This document shows positions 36,498 through 51,044 of a stretch of DNA of 64,000 nt, piece by piece (positions within the stretch are counted from its first letter, which is position 1; every line of letters begins with the position of its first letter). The position numbers and the translations under genes are program-made. This stretch comes from an uncultured Planctomycetota bacterium (GTDB lineage: Bacteria > Planctomycetota > Planctomycetia > Isosphaerales > Isosphaeraceae): positions 448,001 to 512,000 of the forward strand of contig CAVTTN010000002.1 of the NCBI GenBank assembly GCA_963737655.1, written 5' to 3'. Under the pieces are notes generated by a model. The model ran no database searches and had not been told where the DNA came from. It worked only from the letters and a program-made list of their open reading frames with translations.

Positions 36498-37628
36498 TCA
36501 TGGATCGACGATCACCACGTCCACGCCCTCGGTCTGGCGCAACAGGCATTCGAGGATCGAGCCGCCGAGCCATCGGCGGGCCCGGGGCTGGCGGGTCTTG
36601 CCCATCACGATCACCTTGATGTCGTATTCGCGAGCGAACGCGGCGATCGTGCTCGCGACGTCCCGGCCCCGGAAGGTCATGGGGATTCCCCCGAGCTTCT
36701 GGGCGAGTTCGAGGTTCTCGGCGATCACCCGTTGCGTGGCGGCCTCGACTCGCGTGAGGTCCTCGGCGGGGGTCTGGATGTAGACCGCGTACCACGGGGC
36801 ATTCAGGCGGTCGGCCAGCCTCGCCGCCTTGCGGAGCAGGGCCGGGGCGTTCGGGCTTCGGCTGGAGAGGCCGACCATCACGCGGTCCGTGGCGGAGGCC
36901 GGCGCCTTGTCCGCCTCGGCCCTTCGCCCTCGACGGTCGATCAGGTGGGCCACTTCCATCAGGGCGAGCTCGCGGAGCCTCGTCAGGTTCGGCGGCGTGA
37001 AGAAATTCTCCATCGCCCGATTCGCGCGGTCGGGCGGATAGACCTTGCCGGCCTTCATCCGATCCAGGAGGTCCTCGACCGAGACGTCGATGTTCACGAT
37101 TTGATCCGCCTCGCCGAGGACGCCGTCGGGCAATCGCTCCTTCACCTTGACGCCCGTGACGCGCTCGACCTGGTCGTACAGGCTCTCCAGATGCTGGATG
37201 TTCACCGTGGTGATCACGTGAATTCCCGCCCGGAGCAGGGCCTCGACGTCCTGAAACCGCTTCGCGTGACGGCTGCCGGGGGCGTTGGTGTGGGCCAGCT
37301 CGTCCACCAGGCAGACCGTCGGCCTCCTCGCGAGGATTGCGTCGAGGTCCATCTCCTTGAGCGTCACGCCGCGATATTCGATCTCCCGGGGCGGGATGAC
37401 CTCCAGGTCGGCGACCTGCTCGGCGGTGTCGGCGCGGCCGTGGGTCTCGACGATCCCGATCGCCACGTCCACGGCCTGGGCCTTCAGCCGTTGCCCCTCG
37501 CGGAGCATGGCGAACGTCTTGCCGACGCCGGCCGAGGAGCCGAGGTAGACCTTGAGCCGGCCCCGTTCCTGGCGGCGGATCAGGTTCAGGAACTGCTCGG
37601 GAGACGGGCGGGCGGGTTCGACGGCCAT
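36498..37628 (-). CDS. kdpD: Truncated KdpD: KdpD N-terminal domain plus Usp domain, no TM or kinase domain
   Basis: RGRLKVYLGSSAGVGKTFAML, ETHGR, VDELAHTN, NIQHLESL, LRELAL, then Usp domain; 376 aa only. Confidence 0.92.
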   Translation of the reverse strand: MAVEPARPSPEQFLNLIRRQERGRLKVYLGSSAGVGKTFAMLREGQRLKAQAVDVAIGIVETHGRADTAEQVADLEVIPPREIEYRGVTLKEMDLDAILARRPTVCLVDELAHTNAPGSRHAKRFQDVEALLRAGIHVITTVNIQHLESLYDQVERVTGVKVKERLPDGVLGEADQIVNIDVSVEDLLDRMKAGKVYPPDRANRAMENFFTPPNLTRLRELALMEVAHLIDRRGRRAEADKAPASATDRVMVGLSSRSPNAPALLRKAARLADRLNAPWYAVYIQTPAEDLTRVEAATQRVIAENLELAQKLGGIPMTFRGRDVASTIAAFAREYDIKVIVMGKTRQPRARRWLGGSILECLLRQTEGVDVVIVDP

Positions 37629-37710
37629 GACGGGGACGACGCCTCGGGGGGCCTCGGGGCGGACGCGAAGCCCTCGGCGACCGCGAAGGCCGTCGAGGGG
37701 CGAGGTTCGA

Positions 37711-37923
37711 TCAGTCGAAGTGGATCTCGGCGTAGCACTGGGACTTCACGAAGGCGTCGAGGTCGTAGTACTCCTCGACGCATGTGTCGGTCAGGGCCAC
37801 CACCCGCCCGTCGGCCCTCGTGAAGAGGACGAGCCAGCCGTCCAGGGCGCGGAACGGGTCGTGGTTCTCGATGGCCTCGCCTCCCAGGACGAAGGCGATG
37901 GCCGAGGCATCCCTCTCGCTCAC
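37711..37923 (-). CDS. 70-aa acidic hypothetical protein inside the kdp operon
   Basis: GGAGGA SD before GTG; natural composition; lies between kdpC and kdpD. Confidence 0.6.
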   Translation of the reverse strand: MSERDASAIAFVLGGEAIENHDPFRALDGWLVLFTRADGRVVALTDTCVEEYYDLDAFVKSQCYAEIHFD

Positions 37924-37941
37924 GGCTGGGTCCTCCGTAGA

Positions 37942-39428
37942 TCATTTCCGAGGGGTCCGGGCGCGATAGTACCCAAGCCAGTCCTTGCCCGTCTCGCGGG
38001 TCAGTTCGGAGAGGGCGGCGTCGATCTCGGCGGGAGTTGGCGTACCGGCCTTCTCGAGCGCAACACCCTTCAGGACGAGGGCCTCGGCCTCGCCCTTCCA
38101 GTCGTTGGTGGCCAGGCCGTGGGCGATCGCCGCGAAGTACCAGGCTCGGGCATCGTCCGGACCGGCGGAGGCGGCCGAGCGGAACTCGGACGCCGCCGCC
38201 GCGAACCGCTTCTCGCGGAAGGCGATCAGGCCGGCGGAGAGGCGTTCCGGAGACCTCAAGGCCGGGACGATCTTCGCCTTCAGGGCCTCGACTTGCTTTT
38301 CCGGGCGGGCCAGGGCCGCGTCGGGCCGGGGCGCCTCGCGGATCGTCTTGAATTCGGCCTGGAGGGCCCGGAACTCACGGCCGAGGCCCGCGACCCGGCC
38401 GTCGATCTCGCCGACCTTCGCCTCCGCGGGCCCCTCGGCCTCGGCCATCCGGCCGACCCGGACCTTGAGGTCCTTCAGGTCGTCGGCCATCTTGTCGAGG
38501 GACGCCCCCTCGACCCGCTCGCGGAGCCTCTCGACCCTCCTCGACAGCTCGTCCACGACCGACGGAGCCGGCGGGGCGGCCGCCGGGGTGCTCTCGGTCT
38601 TCGCCTCGGGCGCCACGGACCGTTCGGCGGGCGGCGGCGCGGGAGCGTTCGGGGCCGTCTCGACCGAGGCGACGGTCTCCGGCATGTCCTGGTCGAGGTC
38701 CAGGTTCAAGCGGAGGACGTTAACCCTCGCCGGGGCGCCGAGGATCGCGCCGAGGTGTTCACGTGCTCGTCGATCAGCTTCATCACGCGATCGACGGCCA
38801 CCTTCCTCGCCGCCGCGACCCTCGGGGCCTGGTAGCGGGCCGCCTCGGGGCTGATGTCGGGGTCGAGCCCGGCGCCGGAGGCCGTCACGAGATCGACCGG
38901 GACCAGGTCCTCGGCCTTCTTGCCCAGCTCCGAGGCGCGGGCGAGGGCCTCGGCCCTGGCGGAGGAGGCCCCGGCTTCGAGCCCGGCGATGGCCGCGGTG
39001 TCGGCCTCGGTGGGCCGCTTGATCTCCGCCTTGGCCTTGAGATCGGCCTGCGCCGCGTCGAGCTTGTCGAGGCCGGCCTTGAGCGCGGCGTCGCCGGTCC
39101 GGGCCAGGACCTGGCGGGCCGAGTCCAGGGCGATCCGGTCGTGCAGGGCCGGGTTCGTCGTGCCGAGGTTCGAGCCGCTCGCGGCGTCCGCCGCGTAGCC
39201 GGTCGCCCCGGCCGCCGACGGCCTCGGCCAGAAGTATTTCTCCGACGCGAACGGCTGGGCGATCAGCTCCGAGCCGACCACCCGGCCCGATCGCTCGATC
39301 AGGCTCCCGTTCGCCTGCCTCGGGAACAGTGAATGGCCCAGCCCGTAGACGGCCGCCGGGTACGCGACGGCGCAGACGACGAACGTCACGAGGCAAGCGA
39401 GCAAGGCGTTGACTGTCTCGCGGATCAT
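37942..39428 (-). CDS. kdpC: K+-transporting ATPase subunit C with internal helical insertion and ~250-aa C-terminal coiled-coil/TPR extension; 1-nt deletion at ~38750
   Basis: YPAAV..FPRQANGSL, GSELIAQPF..YFWPRPSA, SGSNLG, VTASGAGLDPDISP; after adding one G: GAPARVNVLRLNLDLD, then no stop until 37942. Confidence 0.85.
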
Positions 39429-39547
39429 GGGGTTCCCGGTCCTTCCCCTCGGATCGAGGGGGCCTTGTGTTCTTCGTTCGAATCCCGGCCGGAGCGGGGA
39501 CACGCGCCTCGCGGCCGAGGAGCCAGTCCCCACTCCGTCGGGGATTC

Positions 39548-41682
39548 TTACTTGATGCCGGCCAGGTTCATCAGGGGGTCGATGGCGATGTCGATGAGCT
39601 TGATCCCGACGAACGGAGCGATCACCCCGCCGAGGCCGTACCACAGGAGGTTCCGCCTCAGCAGGGCGCCCGCGCCGACGGGCCGATACTTCACGCCCTT
39701 CAGGGCGATCGGGATCAGCAGGGGGATCACGATCGCGTTGAAGATCACGGCCGAGAGGATCGCCGAATAGGCGCCCCCCTGCGTGGCCAGGCCCATCACG
39801 TCCAGGGCGCTGAGGCCCGGCAGCGTGACGATGAACAGCGCCGGGATCACGGCGAAGTACTTCGCCAGGTCGTTGGCGATCGAGAACGTGGTCAGCGCGC
39901 CGCGGGTCATCAGCAATTGCTTGCCGATCTCGACGACCTCGATGAGCTTGGTCGGGTCGCTGTCGAGATCGACCATGTTGCCGGCCTCCTTGGCGGCCTG
40001 GGTGCCGGAGTTCATCGCCACGCCGATGTCGGCCTGGGCCAGGGCGGGGGCGTCGTTGGTGCCGTCGCCCATCATCGCCACGAGCTTGCCGCCCTCCTGC
40101 TCCTTGCGGATGTAGGCGAGCTTGGCCTCGGGGGTGGCCTGGGCGATGAAGTCATCCACGCCCGCCTCCTTGGCGATCGCCTCGGCGGTCAACGGGTTGT
40201 CGCCGGTGACCATCACCACCCGCAACCCCATCTGGCGGAGTCGGGCGAAGCGGTCGCGGATGCCCGGCTTGAGGATGTCCTCCAGGCAGATCACGCCGAC
40301 GATCCGGTCGTCCTCGGCCACGGCCAGGGGCGTGGCACCGCCCGAGGCGATGGCATCGACGGCCTGCTGATAGCCGTCGGGGATCGACCCACCTTGATCC
40401 TGAACATATTTCGCCACGGTGTTCGGAGCGCCCTTGCGGAGCCTCGGGCCGTCGGGCAGGTCCACGCCGCTCATCCGGGTCTGGGCGGTGAAGTCGATGA
40501 ATCGCGAGCCCGAAGGCGCCTCGGCCTCCAGGCTCGACTGGAGCCGGGCGAGGTCGAGGATGCTCTTGCCCTCGGGCGTGGAGTCGGCCATCGAGGCCAG
40601 CCCGGCCGTCCTCGCCAGGTCGCGGGGCGAGGCCCCGCCCAGCGGCACGAACCGGGTGGCCCGGCGATTGCCGATGGTGATCGTCCCGGTCTTGTCCAGC
40701 AGGAGCGTGTCGATGTCGCCGGCCACCTCGACCGCCTTGCCGCTCTTGGCGATCAGGTTCGCCGCCAGCGCCCGGTCCATCCCGGCGATCCCGATCGCCG
40801 CCAGGAGGGCCCCGATCGTCGTCGGGATCAGGCAGACGAGCAGGGCGATCAGGGTCGGGATGTCCAGGGTGAGGTCGAAGTACCGGGCCATGGGGTAGAG
40901 CGTGGCCGTCACGATCAGGAAGATCATCGAGAACGCCGCGAGCACGATCGTCAGGGCGATCTCGTTGGGCGTCTTCTGTCGCGACGCCCCCTCGACCAGC
41001 GCGATCATCTTGTCGAGGAAGCTCTGGCCCGGCTCGGCCGTCACCCGGACGACGATCCGGTCGGACAGGACGCGCGTCCCTCCCGTGACGCCGGAGTGGT
41101 CGCCGCCGGCCTCGCGGATCACCGGGCGCTCTCCCCGGTGATCGCGCTTTCATCCACCGAGGCGACCCCGTCCACGACCTCGCCGTCGGTCGGGATGACC
41201 TGCCCGGCCTCGATCGCCACGAGGTCTCCGGAGCGGAGCCTCGTCGAGGAGACGACCTCGCCGACCGGCGAATGGAGGTCGCGGAGGCGATAGGCGGGCG
41301 TGTCGGCACGAGTGGCGCGGAGGCTGTCGGCCTGGGCCTTGCCCCGGGCCTCGGCCAGCGCCTCGGCGAAGTTGGCGAACAGCACGGTGAGCAGGAGGAG
41401 CAACGTGAGCACGCCCTGATACACGATCAGGCCCGCCGCCGCCCCCCTCACGATCGACTCCACCGTGACGATCGCCGTCAGGACGGTGCCGACCTCGACG
41501 AGGAACATGACCGGGTTGCGGGCCATGACCCTCGGGTCGAGCATGCGGAACGACTGGGCGACGGCCATCTTCACGAGGGCCGGTTCGAACAGGCGGAGCT
41601 TGCGGGTCGCCCGCCTCTGGATCTTGGACGCCTGGGCGTCGGCGTCCCGATCGGGCGCGCCGACCTCGGTGGCGAGGCTCAT
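39548..41682 (-). CDS. kdpB: K+-transporting P-type ATPase subunit B, split by a 1-nt deletion at ~41125
   Basis: [22 protein letters not shown](APV), [39 protein letters not shown]. Confidence 0.97.
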
Positions 41683-41863
41683 CGGGTTCTATCCTTCGCG
41701 GAGTTCGTGGTTCGGGATCGGCAACTGTCCGGATCGTCGCGACCGAGCGAGTCCGAGGCCTGGGGATCTGGTCCTTTCGAGCTTCGTGGGGCAGGCATCG
41801 GCCTGCCGGGCCAGGCCCGGGGACGATGGGACCAGGCCCACCCTCCCCGGATCGAAGACCCCT

Positions 41864-43611
41864 CTAGGGCTTGGCGCCGGCGGTCAGGCCGTCGGCGATC
41901 GGCCCGAGCACGAGCGCCGGCATGAACGACAGGGCCCCGACCATCAGGACCGTCCCCAGGAGCATCCCGGCGAAGGTCAGGTCGTCGGTCTTGAGCGTCC
42001 CGGTCGTCTGCGGCACCCTCTTCTTCGCCGAGAGGAAGCCGGCGACGGCCAGGGGTAGGATCAGGGCCGGGAACCGGCCCAGGAGCAGGACGACCCCCGT
42101 GGCGATGTTCCAGGCCGGGTTGTTGTCCGCCAGGCCCTCGAAGCCCGACCCGTTGTTCGCCGAGGCCGAGGTGAACTCGTAGAGGATCTCGCTGAAGCCG
42201 TGGGACCCGGGGTTGTTCACGGCCTTCGCCCCCCAGGGCGTCGCGGCGAACAGGGCGGCCCCGCAGCAAATGAGCAGGGGGTGCAGGAGGATGGCGACCA
42301 TCGCCAGCTTCACCTCCTTCGCCTCCACCTTCTTGCCGAGGTACTCGGGCGTCCGCCCCACCATCAGGCCGGCGATGAACACGGCCACGATGACATACAT
42401 CAGCATGTTCTCGAAACCGGCGCCGATCCCGCTGAAGACGACGTTGAGCATCATCATCGTCATCGGCACGGCCCCGGCGATCGGGTTGAGGCTGTCGTGC
42501 ATGCTGTTGACCGAGCCGTTGGAGGTCGCGGTGGTCATCGCGGCCCACGTCGCCGAGGCGACGGGCCCGAAGCGGACCTCCTTGCCCTCCATGTTCGGCC
42601 CCCGGGCCACGGGCAGGCCGTCGGTCGCCGCGCTCGGCCTGGCCTCGGCCAGGATCGCCACCACCGCCCCGCCGACCAGCAGCGCCAGCATCACGCCGAA
42701 GAGCACCATCGCGTGCCTCATCCGCCGGAGCATCAGCCCGGCCATCACGATCGACGACATCGGCACCAGGACGATCGAGGCGATCGACAGCATGTTCGTC
42801 CAGGGCGAGGGGTTCTCGAACGGGTGGGCGGAGTTCGGCCCGAAGAACCCGCCGCCGTTGGTCCCGGTCTGCTTGATCGCCACCAGGGCCGCCACCGGGC
42901 CCCGGGCGATCGTTTGCGTCTCGAACTTCGTCGCCGCGCCGTCCACGGTCGTCGCCGTCGCGGCCTTCTCGAAGGTCATCGGCGTGCCCAGCCCGACCAT
43001 CGCCACGGCCAGGACGAGGCTATACGGGATCAGCCCGAAGACGATCCCGCGCATCAAATCGACGTAGAAATCCCCGAGGTGCTTGTCCCCTCGGAGCCCC
43101 CGCAGGGTCGCGAGCATCACGCAGAGGCCCGACGCCGGGGTGACGAACATCAGCCAGACGATGCAGGCCAGCTGGCTGAAGTACGAGAGGTTCTGCTCGC
43201 CCGAGTAGTGCTGCAAGTTCGTGTTGGTGACGAACGAGCAGACCGTGTTGAAGATCACCGCCGTGTCGGCGCCGTCGTGCTGGACGCCATCCACGTCCTT
43301 GTATCCCAGGGCGGCCAGCGACCCCTTGCCGTCGGGGTTGAGCAGCGGGATCTTGTCCTGGAAGTACAGCAAGGCGAAGGTGATCGCGAACAGGGCGAAG
43401 TTGAAGGCCAGGAGGGCGACGGCGTAGCGCCTCCAGCCCATCTCCTCCGGCTTGCGTCGGCCGACGAGCCGGGCCAGGAACCGCGGGATGGCGTCGAGCC
43501 CGCGCCCTCTCGGCCCTCGGGCACGTCGAGCGACTTCCAGAGGACCCAACCGAGCGGGAACGACGCCGCGATCGGCAGCGAGAAGGCCCAGAACGGATGG
43601 AGCCAGGACAT
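41864..43611 (-). CDS. kdpA: K+-transporting ATPase subunit A, split by a 1-nt deletion at ~43505
   Basis: SFVTNTNLQHYSGE, GTNGGGFFGPNSAHPFENP, MEGKEVRFG, SNGSVN, GRTPEYLGKK, NNGSGF; true start MSWLHPFW at 43611. Confidence 0.95.
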
Positions 43612-43801
43612 CGAGGATTCCACCGAAATCACTCCGAGGAGAGAGAAGGGAGGCGACGATCGGGAAATCGGGCCCCGCCCGGCCGGGGGCGGCCCGCGAA
43701 ACACCCTCGACCCGGGGGTCGAGGATGCCGCCCGGCCCCTTTCTCGGCCGGACATTTCACCGCGGGCCGCCCCCGCCCGGCCGGGGCCCGAGACGGGCGG
43801 T

Positions 43802-43930
43802 TCAGAACCGCTCGGGGCGGATCATGGCGACGGTCAGGTAGACCAGCGCCAGGACGGTCAGCGCGGCCGAGAGCCAGAGGACGAACGGGCTGCCCCCGTG
43901 GGCAGCGGCGGAGGCGATCAACGGATTCAT
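43802..43930 (-). CDS. kdpF: K+-transporting ATPase subunit F (42 aa)
   Basis: MNPLIASAAAHGGSPFVLWLSAALTVLALVYLTVAMIRPERF*; YL..A.IRPERF hallmark; below the ORF-track size cutoff. Confidence 0.9.
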   Translation of the reverse strand: MNPLIASAAAHGGSPFVLWLSAALTVLALVYLTVAMIRPERF

Positions 43931-43951
43931 CGTCGAGGACGCTCCGAGGGG

Positions 43952-44140
43952 TCAAAGTCGCTCGCACGCGGCGACCAGGGCGAAGAAGAGGGCGAACATC
44001 ACCGCCCCGAGGGCGAACGTCATCAGGGTCATCTTGAGGCTCCGTCGCAAGTGGGCCCGGCGCTCGGCTTCCGTGAATTCGAGGCGAGAGGCCGGCAGGG
44101 ACCACGCCATCCCGGGTTCCCATCTCCTCGTCCGGTTCAT
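43952..44140 (-). CDS. Small single-TM kdp-associated peptide ending FALFFALVAACERL
   Basis: Hydrophobic C-terminus; ATG overlaps the stop of the upstream regulator (alternative start 44110). Confidence 0.6.
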   Translation of the reverse strand: MNRTRRWEPGMAWSLPASRLEFTEAERRAHLRRSLKMTLMTFALGAVMFALFFALVAACERL

Positions 44141-44862
44141 GAGTTCACTCCCTGGTCCAGAGGAATATCGCTGTGCCCGAACGTGAATCGTTCGTAATAC
44201 CGCTTCATGTTGTTCCGTGCCGGGGCATGGCGGGGATCGGCCTTCAGGGCCGCCCGGTATTCCCGGTACGAGGCGTCGTGCTCGCCCCGGAGCTCGTGGA
44301 GGACCCCCTTGAGGTTGTGCGCCTCGGCCGACGCCGGATTCAGCGCCAGGGCCTCGCGGAGGAAGATGTCCGCGTCGTCGAACCGCCTCCGGGTCAGCGA
44401 CCACTTGGCCCGCGAAAGCTCCTCGGCGAACTTCGATTCCACCGTGACCGGACCGATCGGCATCGGAGGGACGGGCTTGGCCTTCGAGGGCCCCCGGCGG
44501 TCCAGGACGTCCTGGACCGCCGAGCGGAGCGCGATCGGCCCGATCGGCTTGGAGAGGAAGTCGATCGCCCCGAGCTTCATCGCCTTCACCGCGTCGGGCA
44601 CGGTGCCGTGGGCCGTCACGATGATCACCGGGACGTCGTCGCCGCGGTCGCGGAGCGCGGCCAGGACGTCCATCCCGTCCATCCCGGGCATCCTCAGGTC
44701 GAGCAGGACGAGGTCGAACGGGTCGCTCGCCAGCCACAACAGCGCCGAAGGCCCGTCCTCGGCCGCCATCACCTCGAACCCCGACGACTCCAGGGCCGTC
44801 TTGAACACGAGGCGGACGTTCGGCTCATCGTCGACGATCAGGAGTTTTTTGGGAGTGTTCAT
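44137..44862 (-). CDS. Response regulator: REC plus TPR, no DNA-binding domain
   Basis: LIVDDE, LLDLRMPGMDG, TAHG, KP; C-terminal TPRs (AEAHNLKGVLHE...YRAALKADP). Confidence 0.9.
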   Translation of the reverse strand: MNTPKKLLIVDDEPNVRLVFKTALESSGFEVMAAEDGPSALLWLASDPFDLVLLDLRMPGMDGMDVLAALRDRGDDVPVIIVTAHGTVPDAVKAMKLGAIDFLSKPIGPIALRSAVQDVLDRRGPSKAKPVPPMPIGPVTVESKFAEELSRAKWSLTRRRFDDADIFLREALALNPASAEAHNLKGVLHELRGEHDASYREYRAALKADPRHAPARNNMKRYYERFTFGHSDIPLDQGVNS

Positions 44863-44865
44863 TCG

Positions 44866-46704
44866 TCAATCCTCCGAGGCCATGTCCGCGACGGGCAGGG
44901 TGAAGGTGAACGCGGCCCCTCGTCCGGGTCCGCTCGCCACGTCGATCGTCCCGCCGTGGGCCAGGACGATCTCGCGGGCGATCGCCAGCCCGAGCCCGGC
45001 CCCTCGCGGCGCCTTCGAGCCCGGGACGCGATAAAACCGCTCGAAAACTCGCGAAAGGTACTCTTCGGCGATCCCCTCGCCGGTGTCGGCCACGGTCACC
45101 ATGACGAATCGGCCAAGGAGCTTCGCATCGATGCGGACCGACCCGCCCCGATCGGTGTGATCCAGCGCGTTGCCGATGAGGTTATCGAAGACATGGGCCA
45201 CTCGGTCGGGATCGACCAGGACCGCGGGCAAGCCCGGTGCGACATCCGCCGTCAGATCGATCCCGCGATCCCTCGCCCGGCTGATCTGCCGCTCGACGGC
45301 CGCCGAGACCGCCTCCGAAGGGGGGATCGGGCGGAGGTCCAGGCGGACGCGACCCTGCTCGATCCGGGTGAGGTCCAGCAGGTCATTGACCATCGCCAGG
45401 AGCCGATCCGAGTCCTGCCGGGCCGCCATCAACAGCTCGGTCTGCTTGGCCGAGAGCGGCCCGACGACCTCCTCCAGCAGCAGGTGAACGGCCATCTGAA
45501 TGCTCGTCAACGGCGTCTTGAGTTCGTGGCTGACGGTGGAGACCATGTCGCTCTTGAGCTGGTCGAGCATGCGGAACCGCGTGACGTCGGACATCACCAC
45601 GGCGGCTCCCAGGAGCCCGCCCTCGGCGTCGCGGATGCCCAGGACGCGGGGCAGGAGGAAGCGTTCCTGGCCGTCGTCGCGGAGGGCGATGGCATGGTCG
45701 AAGCTCGTGGGCAAGAAGTCCGGATCGCCGCGAAGGACGGCCGCCAGGGGCGCCTTGAGGGTCGGCGGGGCCGACCACGGCACGCTCGAACCCTCGACGG
45801 GCACCGCCCCCAGGAGCCTCCGGGCCGCCGGGTTCGCCCGCTCGACGGCCGCCAGCGGATCGACGACGACCACGGGGTCGGGGAACGAGTCGATCGTGGC
45901 CTGGGCCGTCTTCTGGGCCCGGACCAGACGGGCGGTCCCGCTCTGGCGGAACTCGCGGATCGTCCGGGCCATCGAGTTGAACGCCGAGGCGAGCTCGCCG
46001 AGCTCGTCGCGAGAGACGACCGGCACGACCTGCTCCATGTCCCCCCGCGCCATCATCCGGGCCCCGTGGGTCACCGCGACGATCGGCCCGAGGATCGACC
46101 GGCTCAGCAACGCCGCGACGGCCGTCGCCACCAGGGCCGAGCCGATCATCGCGACGATCATGCCCCGCATCGAGCCCGAGGCCGCCGCGCGGGCCTGTCG
46201 GTCCATGGCCTCCATGTTCCCCTGGTTCAGCAATCGGACGTCGTCCGCCCGGTCCTTGATCCGGTTGAACGTCGGCAGGATCTCCGCGAAATAGAGGGCC
46301 GTCCGCTCCTCGGCCGGCGCCTCGAAGAACCGCTCGGAGAGCCGGAAATAGCGGTCCCGGAGGGTCGTGAGGTCGGCGACGAGTTCGTCTTCGCGAGGAT
46401 GGATCGTGATATTCTGGCGCTCTCGCTCGAAATTCTCCTCGAAGCGGGGGCGGTTCTCGGCGAACTGCTCGCGACCCCGCGACCCCTGGCCGCCGATGGC
46501 GAACAGCAACGCCGAATCCATGCGCTCCAGGGCGTCTTTCATCTCCTGGGCGGCCAGGACGCTGCGATAATTCTCCTTCAAGATGACCTCGATGTTCCCG
46601 CCCAGACGCGAGAACATGAACACGGCCCAAAGCCCCAGGCCGACCAGGATGGCCAGCAACGGGGCAACGCCAATCAGGAACCGGACCCGCAACGTCTTGA
46701 TCAT
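44866..46704 (-). CDS. Sensor histidine kinase (TM-4HB-TM-HAMP-PAS-HisKA-HATPase; KinB-like architecture)
   Basis: ENYRS sensor start, DELGELASAFNSM HAMP, SHELKTPLTS H-box, NLIGNA, DTGEG, GAGLGL. Confidence 0.92.
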   Translation of the reverse strand: MIKTLRVRFLIGVAPLLAILVGLGLWAVFMFSRLGGNIEVILKENYRSVLAAQEMKDALERMDSALLFAIGGQGSRGREQFAENRPRFEENFERERQNITIHPREDELVADLTTLRDRYFRLSERFFEAPAEERTALYFAEILPTFNRIKDRADDVRLLNQGNMEAMDRQARAAASGSMRGMIVAMIGSALVATAVAALLSRSILGPIVAVTHGARMMARGDMEQVVPVVSRDELGELASAFNSMARTIREFRQSGTARLVRAQKTAQATIDSFPDPVVVVDPLAAVERANPAARRLLGAVPVEGSSVPWSAPPTLKAPLAAVLRGDPDFLPTSFDHAIALRDDGQERFLLPRVLGIRDAEGGLLGAAVVMSDVTRFRMLDQLKSDMVSTVSHELKTPLTSIQMAVHLLLEEVVGPLSAKQTELLMAARQDSDRLLAMVNDLLDLTRIEQGRVRLDLRPIPPSEAVSAAVERQISRARDRGIDLTADVAPGLPAVLVDPDRVAHVFDNLIGNALDHTDRGGSVRIDAKLLGRFVMVTVADTGEGIAEEYLSRVFERFYRVPGSKAPRGAGLGLAIAREIVLAHGGTIDVASGPGRGAAFTFTLPVADMASED

Positions 46705-46737
46705 CGGACCCTCATCGGGGACGTGGATCCCGGGGAA

Positions 46738-46754
46738 TGCATCGGCCGTGCCAA
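46738..46754 (-). promoter_or_regulatory. sigma54 (-24/-12) promoter TTGGCACGGCCGATGCA
   Basis: Matches TGGCACG-N4-TTGCW with one mismatch and exact GG-N10-GC spacing; 34 bp upstream of the kinase ATG, next to a sigma54 activator gene. Confidence 0.8.
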
Positions 46755-46841
46755 CAGGCCCTGATGATACGCAAGTGGCGTCTGCGAATCGACTTCGGAA
46801 GGCCCGCCAGACGCGAGCCGGTCCCGCTCGCCCCGTGCCGA

Positions 46842-46879
46842 CCCGTGCGGAACGCGGCGGCGCCCGTGCGATTTGCACG
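46842..46879. promoter_or_regulatory. Candidate enhancer (UAS) for the sigma54 activator
   Basis: Palindrome CGTGC-GATTT-GCACG at 46865-46879, plus direct repeat CCCGTGCG at 46842 and 46863 (21-bp spacing), ~90-125 bp upstream of the promoter. Confidence 0.5.
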
Positions 46880-46933
46880 ATCGGCGCAGGGGACCGCCGC
46901 CGTCGAGGTCCGAGGCCGGGCCGCCCGTCCGCC

Positions 46934-48274
46934 TCAGAGGCCGTAGCCTTTTCGCTTGCGGTAGAGCGTGCTCGGGTCGATCCCCAGCGTCTTCGCCGCC
47001 GCTTCCAGGCTCGGCGAGGCGGCGAGGACCCGGCGGATGTGCTCCATCTCGAGCCGATCGAGCGGGATCGGCCCGCCCACCTCCACGGCCGAACCCGCTC
47101 GGTCCGGCGGCCCCGAAGCGATCCGCTCGGGGAGGTCCGCCAGGCCGATCTCGTCGCCGAGGGCGAGGATCACCGCGCGCTCGACGGCGTTGCGGAGCTC
47201 GCGGAGGTTGCCCGGCCAGGGGTGCCGCCTCATCGCGGCCCTCGCCTCGGCCGAGAAGCCCGAGAGCTTCCGCCCGGTCTGCCCGGCGAAGAACCGGAGG
47301 TAGCCGTCGGCCAGGGCGTCGAGGTCGGTCCGACTCCTCAACGGCGGCAACGTCAGCTCGACGACATTCAAACGATAGAGCAAATCCTCACGAAACGCCC
47401 CCGAGGCCACCGCAAGTTCCAGGTCGCGATTCGTGGCCGCCACCAGGCGGACGTCGGCACTCCTGGTCCTCGTCTCGCCGACTCGCTCGTAGCGCCTTTC
47501 CTGGAGGAAGCGGAGCAGCTTGGGCTGAAGGGGCGCGGGCAGGTCGCCGATCTCGTCCAGGAACAGGGTCCCGCCCTCGGCCGCGGCCACCTTGCCGGGC
47601 GAGTCGCGAATCGCGCCGGTGAACGCGCCCTTGACGTGGCCGAAGAGGTCGCTCTCCAGCAAGTCGGGGCTGAGGCTCGGGCAACTGACCGTGACCATCG
47701 GCCCCGACGCCCTCCGGCCCCAGGCGTGGAGGGCGCGGGCCAGGACCCCCTTGCCCGTGCCGTTCTCGCCACGAATTAACACGGCGGCATCCGTCGGCGC
47801 AACGCGGCGAGCCGTCGCAAACACGGCGGCGACCCCCGGGTCTCGGCCCTCGAAATCGGCCTCGGGGACCTCGCTCCGGACGCGGTCCTCCAGGGCCGCG
47901 ACCCGCCCGGATAGCCCCCGGGCGCGCTCGACCCGCTCCAGGACGCCGCGCACCTGGGCCGGCGTGAACGGCTTGGCGAGGAAATCGAACGCCCCTCGAC
48001 GCATCGCCTCCACGGCCGCATCGATCGACGCGTGGGCGGTGATCACGATCACCATCGCTCGCGGGAGGATCTCGCGGAGCGGTCCCAGCAGGTCCAGGCC
48101 CGACTCGGCGCCGAGCCTCAGGTCGACGAACGCGACGTCGAACCCGCGCCGATCGGCCTCGCGCAACGCCTCGGCCGCGTTCGCCGCGCCGAAAGGCTCG
48201 TGGCCCGCCGCTTCGAGGGCCACGCCGAGCGTCTTGCGGATGTTCGGCTCGTCGTCGACGATCAGGATGCGCAT
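46934..48274 (-). CDS. sigma54-dependent response regulator (REC-AAA+-Fis HTH; NtrC/AlgB-like)
   Basis: [62 protein letters not shown]. Confidence 0.95.
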
Positions 48275-48290
48275 CGAAATCTCGATCCGA

Positions 48291-48722
48291 TCAATCCCGA
48301 GGGGGGAAGACGTCCGGGGCGATCTGGTATCCCTCGGCGATCGCGTTGGTCGAGTTGAAGAGGCCGACGATCGCCAGGACCTCCCCCAGCGCCTCGACGT
48401 CCAGCCCGAGCTTGCGGACGGCCGCCGAGTGCGAACTCACACAGTAGGAGCAACCGTTCGTGGCCGAGACCGCCAGCGCGATGATCTCGCGAGTGAGCGG
48501 GTCGAGGCGGCCGGCCCGGCCTTCGCTCTCGGGATGCATCAGCGATTTCAGGCGGGTCCAGACCATCTCCAGGTGCGCCGGGTTCGTGGCCAGGACCCGC
48601 CAGAATCTCGGCACGAAGTCCAGATGCTTGGTCGCCTTGATGTCGGCGAACACGGCGGCGACGAGGCCCGTCGCTTCGGATTCCTCGACCGGACGGACCG
48701 TCGCCTCGGGTCGTTCGTCCAT
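48291..48722 (-). CDS. Carboxymuconolactone decarboxylase / AhpD-like protein
   Basis: [21 protein letters not shown] motif. Confidence 0.88.
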
Positions 48723-49878: not shown

Positions 49879-50851
49879 CTACTTGATCAAACGCTCAAGC
49901 GTCTTGCCCAGGTTCGGGCCGCGGAGCTCCAGGCGGATGACCTTCCCCTCGGGATCGACGAGGAACGTGGCGGGGATCGTGTTCACCCCGAAGGCGTCCA
50001 CCACGTCCGCGCCGCTCGTGGCGTTGTGGATTTGCTTCCACGGCATCCTGTGCGTCTTGAGGAAATCGGCCAGCGGCGCCGAGGTCTCGTCCAGGCTGAT
50101 CGACACGACGTCGAACCCCTTGTCGCGGTACTTCTCGTAGGCGGCCTGGACGTTCGGCAGCTCGGCGACGCACGGGGCGCACCAGGTGGCCCAGAAATCC
50201 ACGAGCACGTATTTCCCCTTGAGGTCGCCCAGGCGGAACGGCTTGCCGGAGAGGTCTTTCAGGAGGGGGAAGGGGGCGGGCTGGCCGATCATGTCCAGGC
50301 GGTTCAGGTCGTCCCGGACCTTCGCCCGCAGCTTCGGGCTCTCGGTGAAGCGTTCGAGGAGCCCCTCGTACACCTCGCGGGCCACGCCGTACTCTCCGGC
50401 GGCCGAGGCGGCGGTGGCCAGGCTGTCGGCGAAGTTCGCGGCGAACTCCTCCTGGTCCTCCTGGCCCAGCCCCTTCATCAGCTGCTTGTACGCCAGGCAG
50501 GCCTCGTCGAACTTGCCATCCTCGGCGCGGGCCATCGTCGCGACGATCTGCGCGAGAGGCCGGACGGTCCCGTCGGGCTTCTCCTGGAGGTACTTCTTCG
50601 CCGTGGGCTCGGTCTCCAGGAACCAGTCGTGCTCGATCGCCTTTTCAAACAAGGTCATGAACTGCGCGATCCACGTCCGGCGCCTTCGGGTTCTTCTCGG
50701 CGTAGGCGGCCAGGTCGCGCATCAACTGGCGATCGTGGGCGTCGAGCAGCTCGGCGACGCTCCGGATCGGCGGGGCCGTCGGCGGTTGGGCCCGAGCGGC
50801 GATCGGGGCGAGGAGGGCGAGGACGAGGGCGAAGGCGAGGGGCCTCGGCAT
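49879..50851 (-). CDS. Secreted TlpA/ResA-like thioredoxin with N-terminal helical/TPR domain; indel at ~50663
   Basis: Signal peptide ARA-Q; VLVDFWATWCAPC, IPATFLVDPEG. Confidence 0.88.
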
Positions 50852-51044
50852 GATCGGCGGTCCTTCGGGACGTTCGGCGTCGAGCAAGGCGGGCCGGGAG
50901 TCCGTCCGAGGCCCGCCGGTTCCATGATGATCGGTCCACGCCTTCACGGCAAGGCGCGGAGGGCCCGCCCCCGGATCGGCTGTTCGAGCAGGAGGGGACT
51001 CCCGAGCCTCGCGAGCGGAGCGGCGCCGGCCCCGGGATTCGCCG

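Follow-up and report, generated by a model that had tools for sequence, protein, structure and literature searches.

We analyzed a 64,000-nucleotide stretch of DNA (the window) from an uncultured planctomycete of the family Isosphaeraceae, which carries the kdpFABC potassium pump genes and no gene for the response regulator KdpE. Our reading, to which we give a probability of roughly 0.7, is that kdpFABC stands behind an enhancer and a sigma54 promoter, that it would be switched on by an activator of the AlgB clade together with a membrane kinase, and that the pump would be switched off post-translationally by a short KdpD acting as a kinase on the subunit KdpB.

All named genes lie on the minus strand, in the order activator, sigma54 promoter, kinase, REC-TPR protein, membrane peptide, kdpF, kdpA, kdpB, extended kdpC, a 70-codon open reading frame (ORF) and KdpD+Usp. 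An earlier reading of this DNA, made from the letters alone (the sequence-only reading), had given the same order and strand, and a check of the window ORFs and their protein families found every part that it named. The features are as follows, with coordinates as positions within the window:

46934..48274, minus strand: AlgB-clade sigma54 activator, REC-AAA+-HTH, GAFTGA intact, 446 amino acids (aa)
46865..46879, no strand assigned (.): enhancer CGTGCA-AAT-CGCACG (TGCA-N3-TGCA with one mismatch), 126 bp before the -24 box
46844-46858: weaker second enhancer copy, 21 bp further on, found by eye
46739..46753, minus strand: sigma54 -24/-12 promoter TGGCAC-N5-ATGC
44866..46704, minus strand: sensor histidine kinase, 612 aa, consisting of a transmembrane segment, a four-helix outer domain, a second transmembrane segment, HAMP, PAS, HisKA (H393) and HATPase
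44137..44862, minus strand: REC-TPR protein, 241 aa
43952..44032, minus strand: 26-aa membrane peptide before kdpF
43802..43930, minus strand: kdpF
41864..43611, minus strand: kdpA, with a one-base frameshift near 43496
39548..41682, minus strand: kdpB, with TGES (E161/S162 equivalent) and DKTGT, and a one-base frameshift near 41126
37942..39428, minus strand: kdpC, with an internal insert and a C-terminal coiled/TPR-like extension, and a one-base frameshift near 38752
37711..37923, minus strand: 70-codon ORF, GC content at third codon positions 0.93, no family
36498..37628, minus strand: short KdpD (KdpD domain and Usp), 376 aa, with Walker A G36-K37-T38, Walker B D109-E110, R190 and the Usp segment SRS-X20-WYAVY

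The genome (7.63 Mb, 87.7% complete, with contig C2 making up 99.7% of the assembly) holds a single KdpD, a single KdpA and a single rpoN by genome-wide search. No KdpE was found above the cut-off: the best OmpR-type matches, at 39% and 37% to a KdpE, reach 124 bits against a cut-off of 325, in agreement with the earlier claim that KdpE is missing. The membrane half of KdpD was not found elsewhere in the genome either, the four DUF4118 matches being other proteins, and the same searches returned no full kdpD/kdpE pair outside the locus, which the sequence-only reading had named as the finding that would speak against it. The kdp block resembles the remainder of the window in GC content, and the top-ranking relatives of its KdpD are labelled Isosphaeraceae or Planctomycetota.

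In 24 of the 33 colinear loci, against 0.1 expected by shuffling, a -24/-12 site is preceded at 45-150 bp by a TGCA-N3-TGCA palindrome, which is frequently doubled, with copies 21-32 bp apart. The enhancer-plus-promoter module is found in 0/27 KdpD/KdpE loci, and a stricter search of contig C2 recovered it once only, at 46879-46739, which is the kdp locus. Five loci have kdp and regulators in divergent orientation; none of them has a promoter between the activator and kinase genes, and in four of these a -24/-12 site with upstream repeats points toward kdp. The conservation of this module, and the way it faces kdp where the genes diverge, support the earlier proposal that sigma54 control by an activator and a kinase replaces KdpD/KdpE, and make putative control of kdpFABC by the AlgB-clade activator through an AlgB-type site likely. 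Bacteroidia loci were excluded from the motif test, since the activators there belong to a clade of their own and few of these loci have the TGCA site; L142, which has no kinase start, was dropped, and G001, G207 and G210 were not among the loci compared.

Separately, Bacteroidia loci L124-L131 combine an activator of the other clade with the same kinase family, and several of them carry, after the activator gene, a TATCATTTTGATA-like palindrome before a -24/-12-like site.

The activator gene ends at 46934 and the promoter starts at 46753, which places the gene upstream of the promoter and outside the transcript that it would control. Feedback could therefore run only through the kinase, REC-TPR and KdpD, so that autoregulation in the sense first proposed is not supported. 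Between 35000 and 50000 no riboswitch was found. A gene of the carboxymuconolactone-decarboxylase family (48291-48722) lies 16 bp before the activator, at a place where it was not seen in relatives, and is probably the source of read-through into the activator here.

The window activator is 50-51% identical to Pseudomonas AlgB (410-417 bits), which we identified through the KinB_sensor domain of its neighbour, while other activators of this genome reach at most 311 bits. A 48-row tree places 4 AlgB rows and 28 kdp-linked activators in one 32-row clade (99/99), supporting the AlgB kinship suggested earlier, and the 7 Bacteroidia kdp activators in a separate one; DVU3334, L040 and broken activator frames (e.g. 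L132 and L150) were left out of it. Whether AlgB is nested in the kdp-linked activators or sister to them is not settled by the topology test (p-AU 0.30, with few outgroups). Binding by AlgB requires two TGCANNNTGCA repeats 20 bp apart, in a site tested by electrophoretic mobility shift assay (PMC12780092). The core of that tested site, TGCA-N3-TGCA, is also the core of the kdp enhancer.

The same arrangement recurs across phyla. KdpD was found in 32/61 genomes searched around this one, and 32 loci from 30 of the 31 KdpD-bearing relatives were compared. KdpE is present at none of the 25 short-KdpD loci and at all 7 full-length ones; activator and kinase accompany the short KdpD in 14/25, with REC-TPR in 12 of those 14. 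Among Bacteroidota (KdpD in 19/71 genomes), the 18 loci compared comprise 4 full-length ones with KdpE and 14 short ones, 13 of which have activator and kinase and the 14th a partial activator match. Verrucomicrobiota (KdpD in 9/61 genomes; 8 loci compared) have activator and kinase in 6/6 short loci and REC-TPR in 2, and in the phylum of the deltaproteobacterial genome G063 (KdpD in 5/61 genomes) the pair is present in 4/5 short loci. Short KdpD and KdpE are thus mutually exclusive in the sampled loci, and the co-occurrence of activator, kinase and short KdpD in several phyla answers the survey proposed with the sequence-only reading: synteny is conserved in many relatives.

We then considered what the kinase might sense. 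The predicted model of the whole protein displays a four-helix outer domain and matches only general kinases in the PDB; the outer domain by itself has no sequence match among solved structures. All 31 kdp-linked outer domains compared have the same six polar residues (N45, S48, N98, T100, E105 and N160), which can be seen in Bacteroidia kinases too and are candidates for binding K+. Named homologs of the kinase come from Paludisphaera, Aquisphaera and Singulisphaera. The earlier term “KinB-like” holds for the architecture and fails for the sensor: KinB_sensor (PF16767) matches the kinase of Pseudomonas L167 and neither the window kinase nor 5 other kdp-linked kinases, and hhalign gives the outer domain a probability of 0.3% against it. 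KinB, which keeps only the first of the conserved motifs, forms a long branch among the kinases, at a position that the tree does not fix. KinB itself was considered as a K+ sensor, a possibility weakened by the lack of most conserved residues in its outer domain.

The kinase might instead report envelope, osmotic or acid stress, or act mainly as a phosphatase on a regulator that a different kinase activates, the arrangement of KinB and BphP with AlgB. Such a role would fit the phosphatase activity of KinB on AlgB in P. aeruginosa (PMC12780092), the binding of three regulators to D. vulgaris kdp (PMC3333781) and the lack of a K+ site readable in the sequence. Against this, kdp-linked kinases of several lineages share the outer-domain residues, most of which are lost from KinB, a kinase with no kdp neighbours, and we consider this alternative doubtful, if worth keeping in mind. 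Elsewhere, an Acidobacteriota locus (L059:52-4637) has this kinase family in front of kdpABC alongside a full-type KdpD, with an OmpR-type regulator close by, and in Terracidiphilus (L031, L032 and L155) the short KdpD is paired with a different kinase without the four-helix outer domain.

The off-switch of our reading rests on the short KdpD. The KdpD domain is a serine kinase for S162 of KdpB (Silberberg et al. 2024, PMC11018627), and a protein of the Deinococcus geothermalis type, made of KdpD and Usp only, phosphorylates KdpB under stimulation by cyclic di-AMP (c-di-AMP) (PMC11018627). Residues G36, K37, T38, D109, E110 and R190 are invariant in 40/40 short KdpDs, and TGES is present in the window KdpB and in 53/53 KdpB matches scored at short-KdpD loci. 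By analogy, the short KdpD likely switches the pump off as a predicted serine kinase on KdpB. This makes the role first given to it, that of sensor for the membrane kinase, probably wrong or incomplete. The protein scores 373.5 bits over its whole length against NCBIfam NF038185 (KdpD-like non-kinase potassium sensor), below the 550-bit cut-off.

The first S and the Y, which c-di-AMP binding needs in S. aureus, are both retained in the Usp segment, and the genome encodes two DacZ-type diadenylate cyclases and, elsewhere, a c-di-AMP riboswitch. Because the segment also fits an E. coli-type motif, as described below, c-di-AMP is an uncertain candidate trigger, at about even odds. The riboswitch (84 bits; G000:C2:1648749-1648888) precedes two tandem related membrane genes (1648449-1643000, L173), the first with a C-terminal Usp, which gave no match to a permease family or to the PDB; we take this arrangement to resemble the YdaO/KimA layout.

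An alternative, put forward in the sequence-only reading and in line with Rajeev et al., is three-component sensing, in which KdpD-Usp, by binding the kinase, would relay to it a cue from the cytoplasm (ATP, c-di-AMP or K+); this could be its principal function or one held alongside its action on KdpB. In 5 loci (L011, L013, L014, L017 and L092) activator, kinase and kdpD make up a separate unit oriented away from kdpABC; the three occur without adjacent kdpABC in L137, L148 and L149, and kdpD immediately precedes the kinase in 8 Bacteroidota loci. Since kdpD travels with the regulators in the first 8 loci and precedes the kinase in the other 8, some coupling between KdpD and kinase may exist, and ATP binding to the E. 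coli KdpD domain is tied to its phosphatase activity (PMC11018627). In the window, on the other hand, kdpD follows kdpC, at a distance of 7 kb from the kinase gene; a PAS domain and a conserved outer domain belong to the kinase itself; and the KdpD/Usp-only protein acts on KdpB without a partner kinase (PMC11018627). We hold three-component sensing to be unlikely and prefer the serine-kinase role. As an observation apart, the short KdpD is fused to a C-terminal PTS EIIA in activator-kinase-kdp loci L132-L137 and L143 (e.g. L132:5299-7029; Pfam-checked in L132, 558-568 aa in the others).

At least 95% of 110 homologs of the REC-TPR protein retain its full set of phosphorylation residues (D11, D12, D55, T83 and K105) and end in the same C-terminal tail, RYYERFTFG. 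Its receiver ranks second of the 30 receiver matches of the genome in similarity to that of the activator, both starting with DDEPN-R, and a phosphate branch from the kinase to REC-TPR is plausible; a role as sink for phosphate or as scaffold is guesswork. The gene is found in Isosphaeraceae and some Verrucomicrobiota loci, with two copies at the locus in L084, L086, L088 and L100. Given that it is duplicated in some loci and missing from divergent and Bacteroidota ones, REC-TPR is accessory.

Each of kdpA (~43496), kdpB (~41126) and kdpC (~38752) is one base shorter than 4/4 aligned relatives, a feature that had not been noticed before. Could the pump genes be recent pseudogenes in this strain, leaving intact regulators to control a dead pump? 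The activator, kinase, REC-TPR and kdpD genes have no one-base deletions, and the background rate predicts about 0.5 shifts in kdpABC (hand calculation, by a method that overlooks shifts close to gene ends, such as that of kdpA) where 3 are seen. Yet kdpABC has no in-frame stops, the main pieces of KdpA and KdpB are 82-90% identical to relatives, and neither TrkH nor Kup genes were found in this 87.7% complete genome; for these reasons we read the shifts as probable long-read errors. Moreover, two of the deletions fall inside short runs of C or G and the third lies next to such a run, and a frame change affects 4/37 other testable genes of the genome, with a similar defect in many related assemblies. 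Decay of the pump is thus very unlikely. Elsewhere in the window (49879-50947) a thioredoxin-like gene is seemingly split over two frames, probably by another one-base error.

Regarding the smaller elements, the kdpC extension is real but patchy, since in relative L006 a single uninterrupted frame of 501 aa encodes the extended KdpC. For the membrane peptide, 44032 is the probable start, giving 26 aa; it is found before kdpF in many kdp loci, canonical KdpD/KdpE ones included. The 70-codon ORF had been counted as a member of the block: it is present in that order, and it has no family, no atlas match and no counterpart in any of the related loci compared, so it is probably a passenger.

Based on these observations, we propose the following model. 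Low outside K+ or a linked stress would shift the four-helix outer domain, and with it the kinase, to the kinase state; this step is the least certain. The kinase would then phosphorylate the activator and probably also REC-TPR, as phosphate sink or scaffold. By analogy with AlgB and DVU3334, the activator would bind the TGCA-N3-TGCA site present ~126 bp upstream and open the -24/-12 promoter, behind which lie the genes for the kinase, REC-TPR, two small membrane peptides, KdpABC and KdpD-Usp, such that feedback would pass through the kinase and not the activator. When K+ returns, KdpD-Usp, which keeps the catalytic residues, would phosphorylate the TGES serine of KdpB, as in E. coli and D. 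geothermalis, and the pump would stop. With the kinase driving transcription and KdpD-Usp stopping the pump, two jobs of E. coli KdpD would thus be split between two unrelated proteins.

Several points weigh against this model. Some of the loci in which the motif was counted are those from which it had first been read, and kin are not independent, so that checks outside these loci weigh more; moreover, since D. vulgaris DVU3305 uses a similar palindrome (PMC3333781), the motif alone does not name the activator. Activator or kinase is missing from the stretch compared in 11/25 short planctomycete loci, through contig ends or rearrangement, and L085, L089, L090, L091 and L093 have no activator nearby although the sequence continues. 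In the adenine pair W39/R190 of KdpD, R190 is invariant and position 39 is F here and Y in the consensus; the Usp segment SRS-X20-WYAVY fits the E. coli-type motif RXXXR-X8-WXAVY in full and the c-di-AMP motif SXS-X20-FTAXY in part. At the divergent loci, kdpD stays with activator and kinase and not with the pump, and the excess of frameshifts in kdpABC has to be set beside these. K+ sensing is a candidate role of the kinase, and for the window locus the whole account is a prediction from sequence.

For several phyla, this locus family would offer a testable answer, with a named operator, promoter and kinase, to the question of kdp transcription that Silberberg et al. left open, and it widens a design known from three sulfate reducers. 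The results suggest that the database label KinB on these proteins has its reason in descent rather than function, and the six conserved residues are a candidate new K+ sensor. More tentatively, and against the odds as we judge them, the AlgB clade may at its root be a regulator of K+ homeostasis driving kdp from one operator (in Planctomycetota, Verrucomicrobiota, Myxococcota, deltaproteobacterial lineages and part of Bacteroidota), with a kinase whose four-helix sensor binds K+ through N45, S48, N98, T100, E105 and N160. Pseudomonas would then have retained the activator with its operator, while the sensor was altered and the circuit redirected to alginate and light, and REC-TPR would be a second phospho-output tying the kinase to the pump or KdpD.

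Prior work already covers the core wiring. The sequence-only reading had left open whether the circuit was undescribed, and the same core was published for D. vulgaris DVU3334/3335/3336: the sigma54 regulator DVU3334 regulates its own kdpFABC operon, with a kinase “split” into DVU3336 (K+ sensor and UspA) and DVU3335 (Rajeev et al. 2011, PMC3333781). Its site, CGTTACATTTTGTAACG, a 17-bp palindrome, lies at -149 upstream of kdpF, with a sigma54 site at -44, and its authors report orthologs in two other species only (PMC3333781). Kazakov et al. 2015 also list the D. vulgaris kdp system (PMC4641369). Silberberg et al. name separate two-component systems for three species and leave kdp transcription open where no kinase is identified; sigma54 and planctomycetes go unmentioned in the accessible part of that paper (PMC11018627). 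In a literature search whose coverage excluded most subscription journals, we found no paper that connects AlgB with kdp or reports this system from planctomycetes. Nor did that search show in print how widely the system occurs, its relationship to AlgB through activator and common operator, the putative sensor residues (in an outer domain unlike that of KinB) or REC-TPR.

The window locus shares with D. vulgaris Hildenborough (DVU3339.1-DVU3334) kdpFABC, a gene for KdpD+Usp only, a separate sensory-box/PAS kinase, a GAFTGA sigma54 regulator and a palindromic site ~100-130 bp before a -24/-12 promoter, with the same spacing and half-sites differing in a few bases (GTTACA-N3-TGTAAC there, TGCA-N3-TGCA here). 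It differs in that the D. vulgaris regulator gene is inside the kdp operon and the planctomycete one upstream of the promoter; REC-TPR is not named among DVU3334-3339.1 in the accessible text. The published D. vulgaris site, searched in 301 genomes, gave 2 matches, one of which was compared and has no kdp genes. Compared with Pseudomonas AlgB/KinB (PMC12780092 and PMC6932827), the HTH end of the activator is nearly identical and the order of kinase domains the same, while kdp genes are absent beside algB-kinB in 4 Pseudomonas loci. The short KdpD resembles the D. geothermalis type in consisting of KdpD and Usp only, in keeping Walker A/B and R190, in its place behind the pump, in the TGES of KdpB and in the diadenylate cyclase genes of the genome, and differs in that its c-di-AMP binding is uncertain. 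In contrast to E. coli KdpD/KdpE, the window has neither the membrane/GAF/transmitter half of KdpD nor an OmpR-type KdpE, and has a sigma54 promoter instead.

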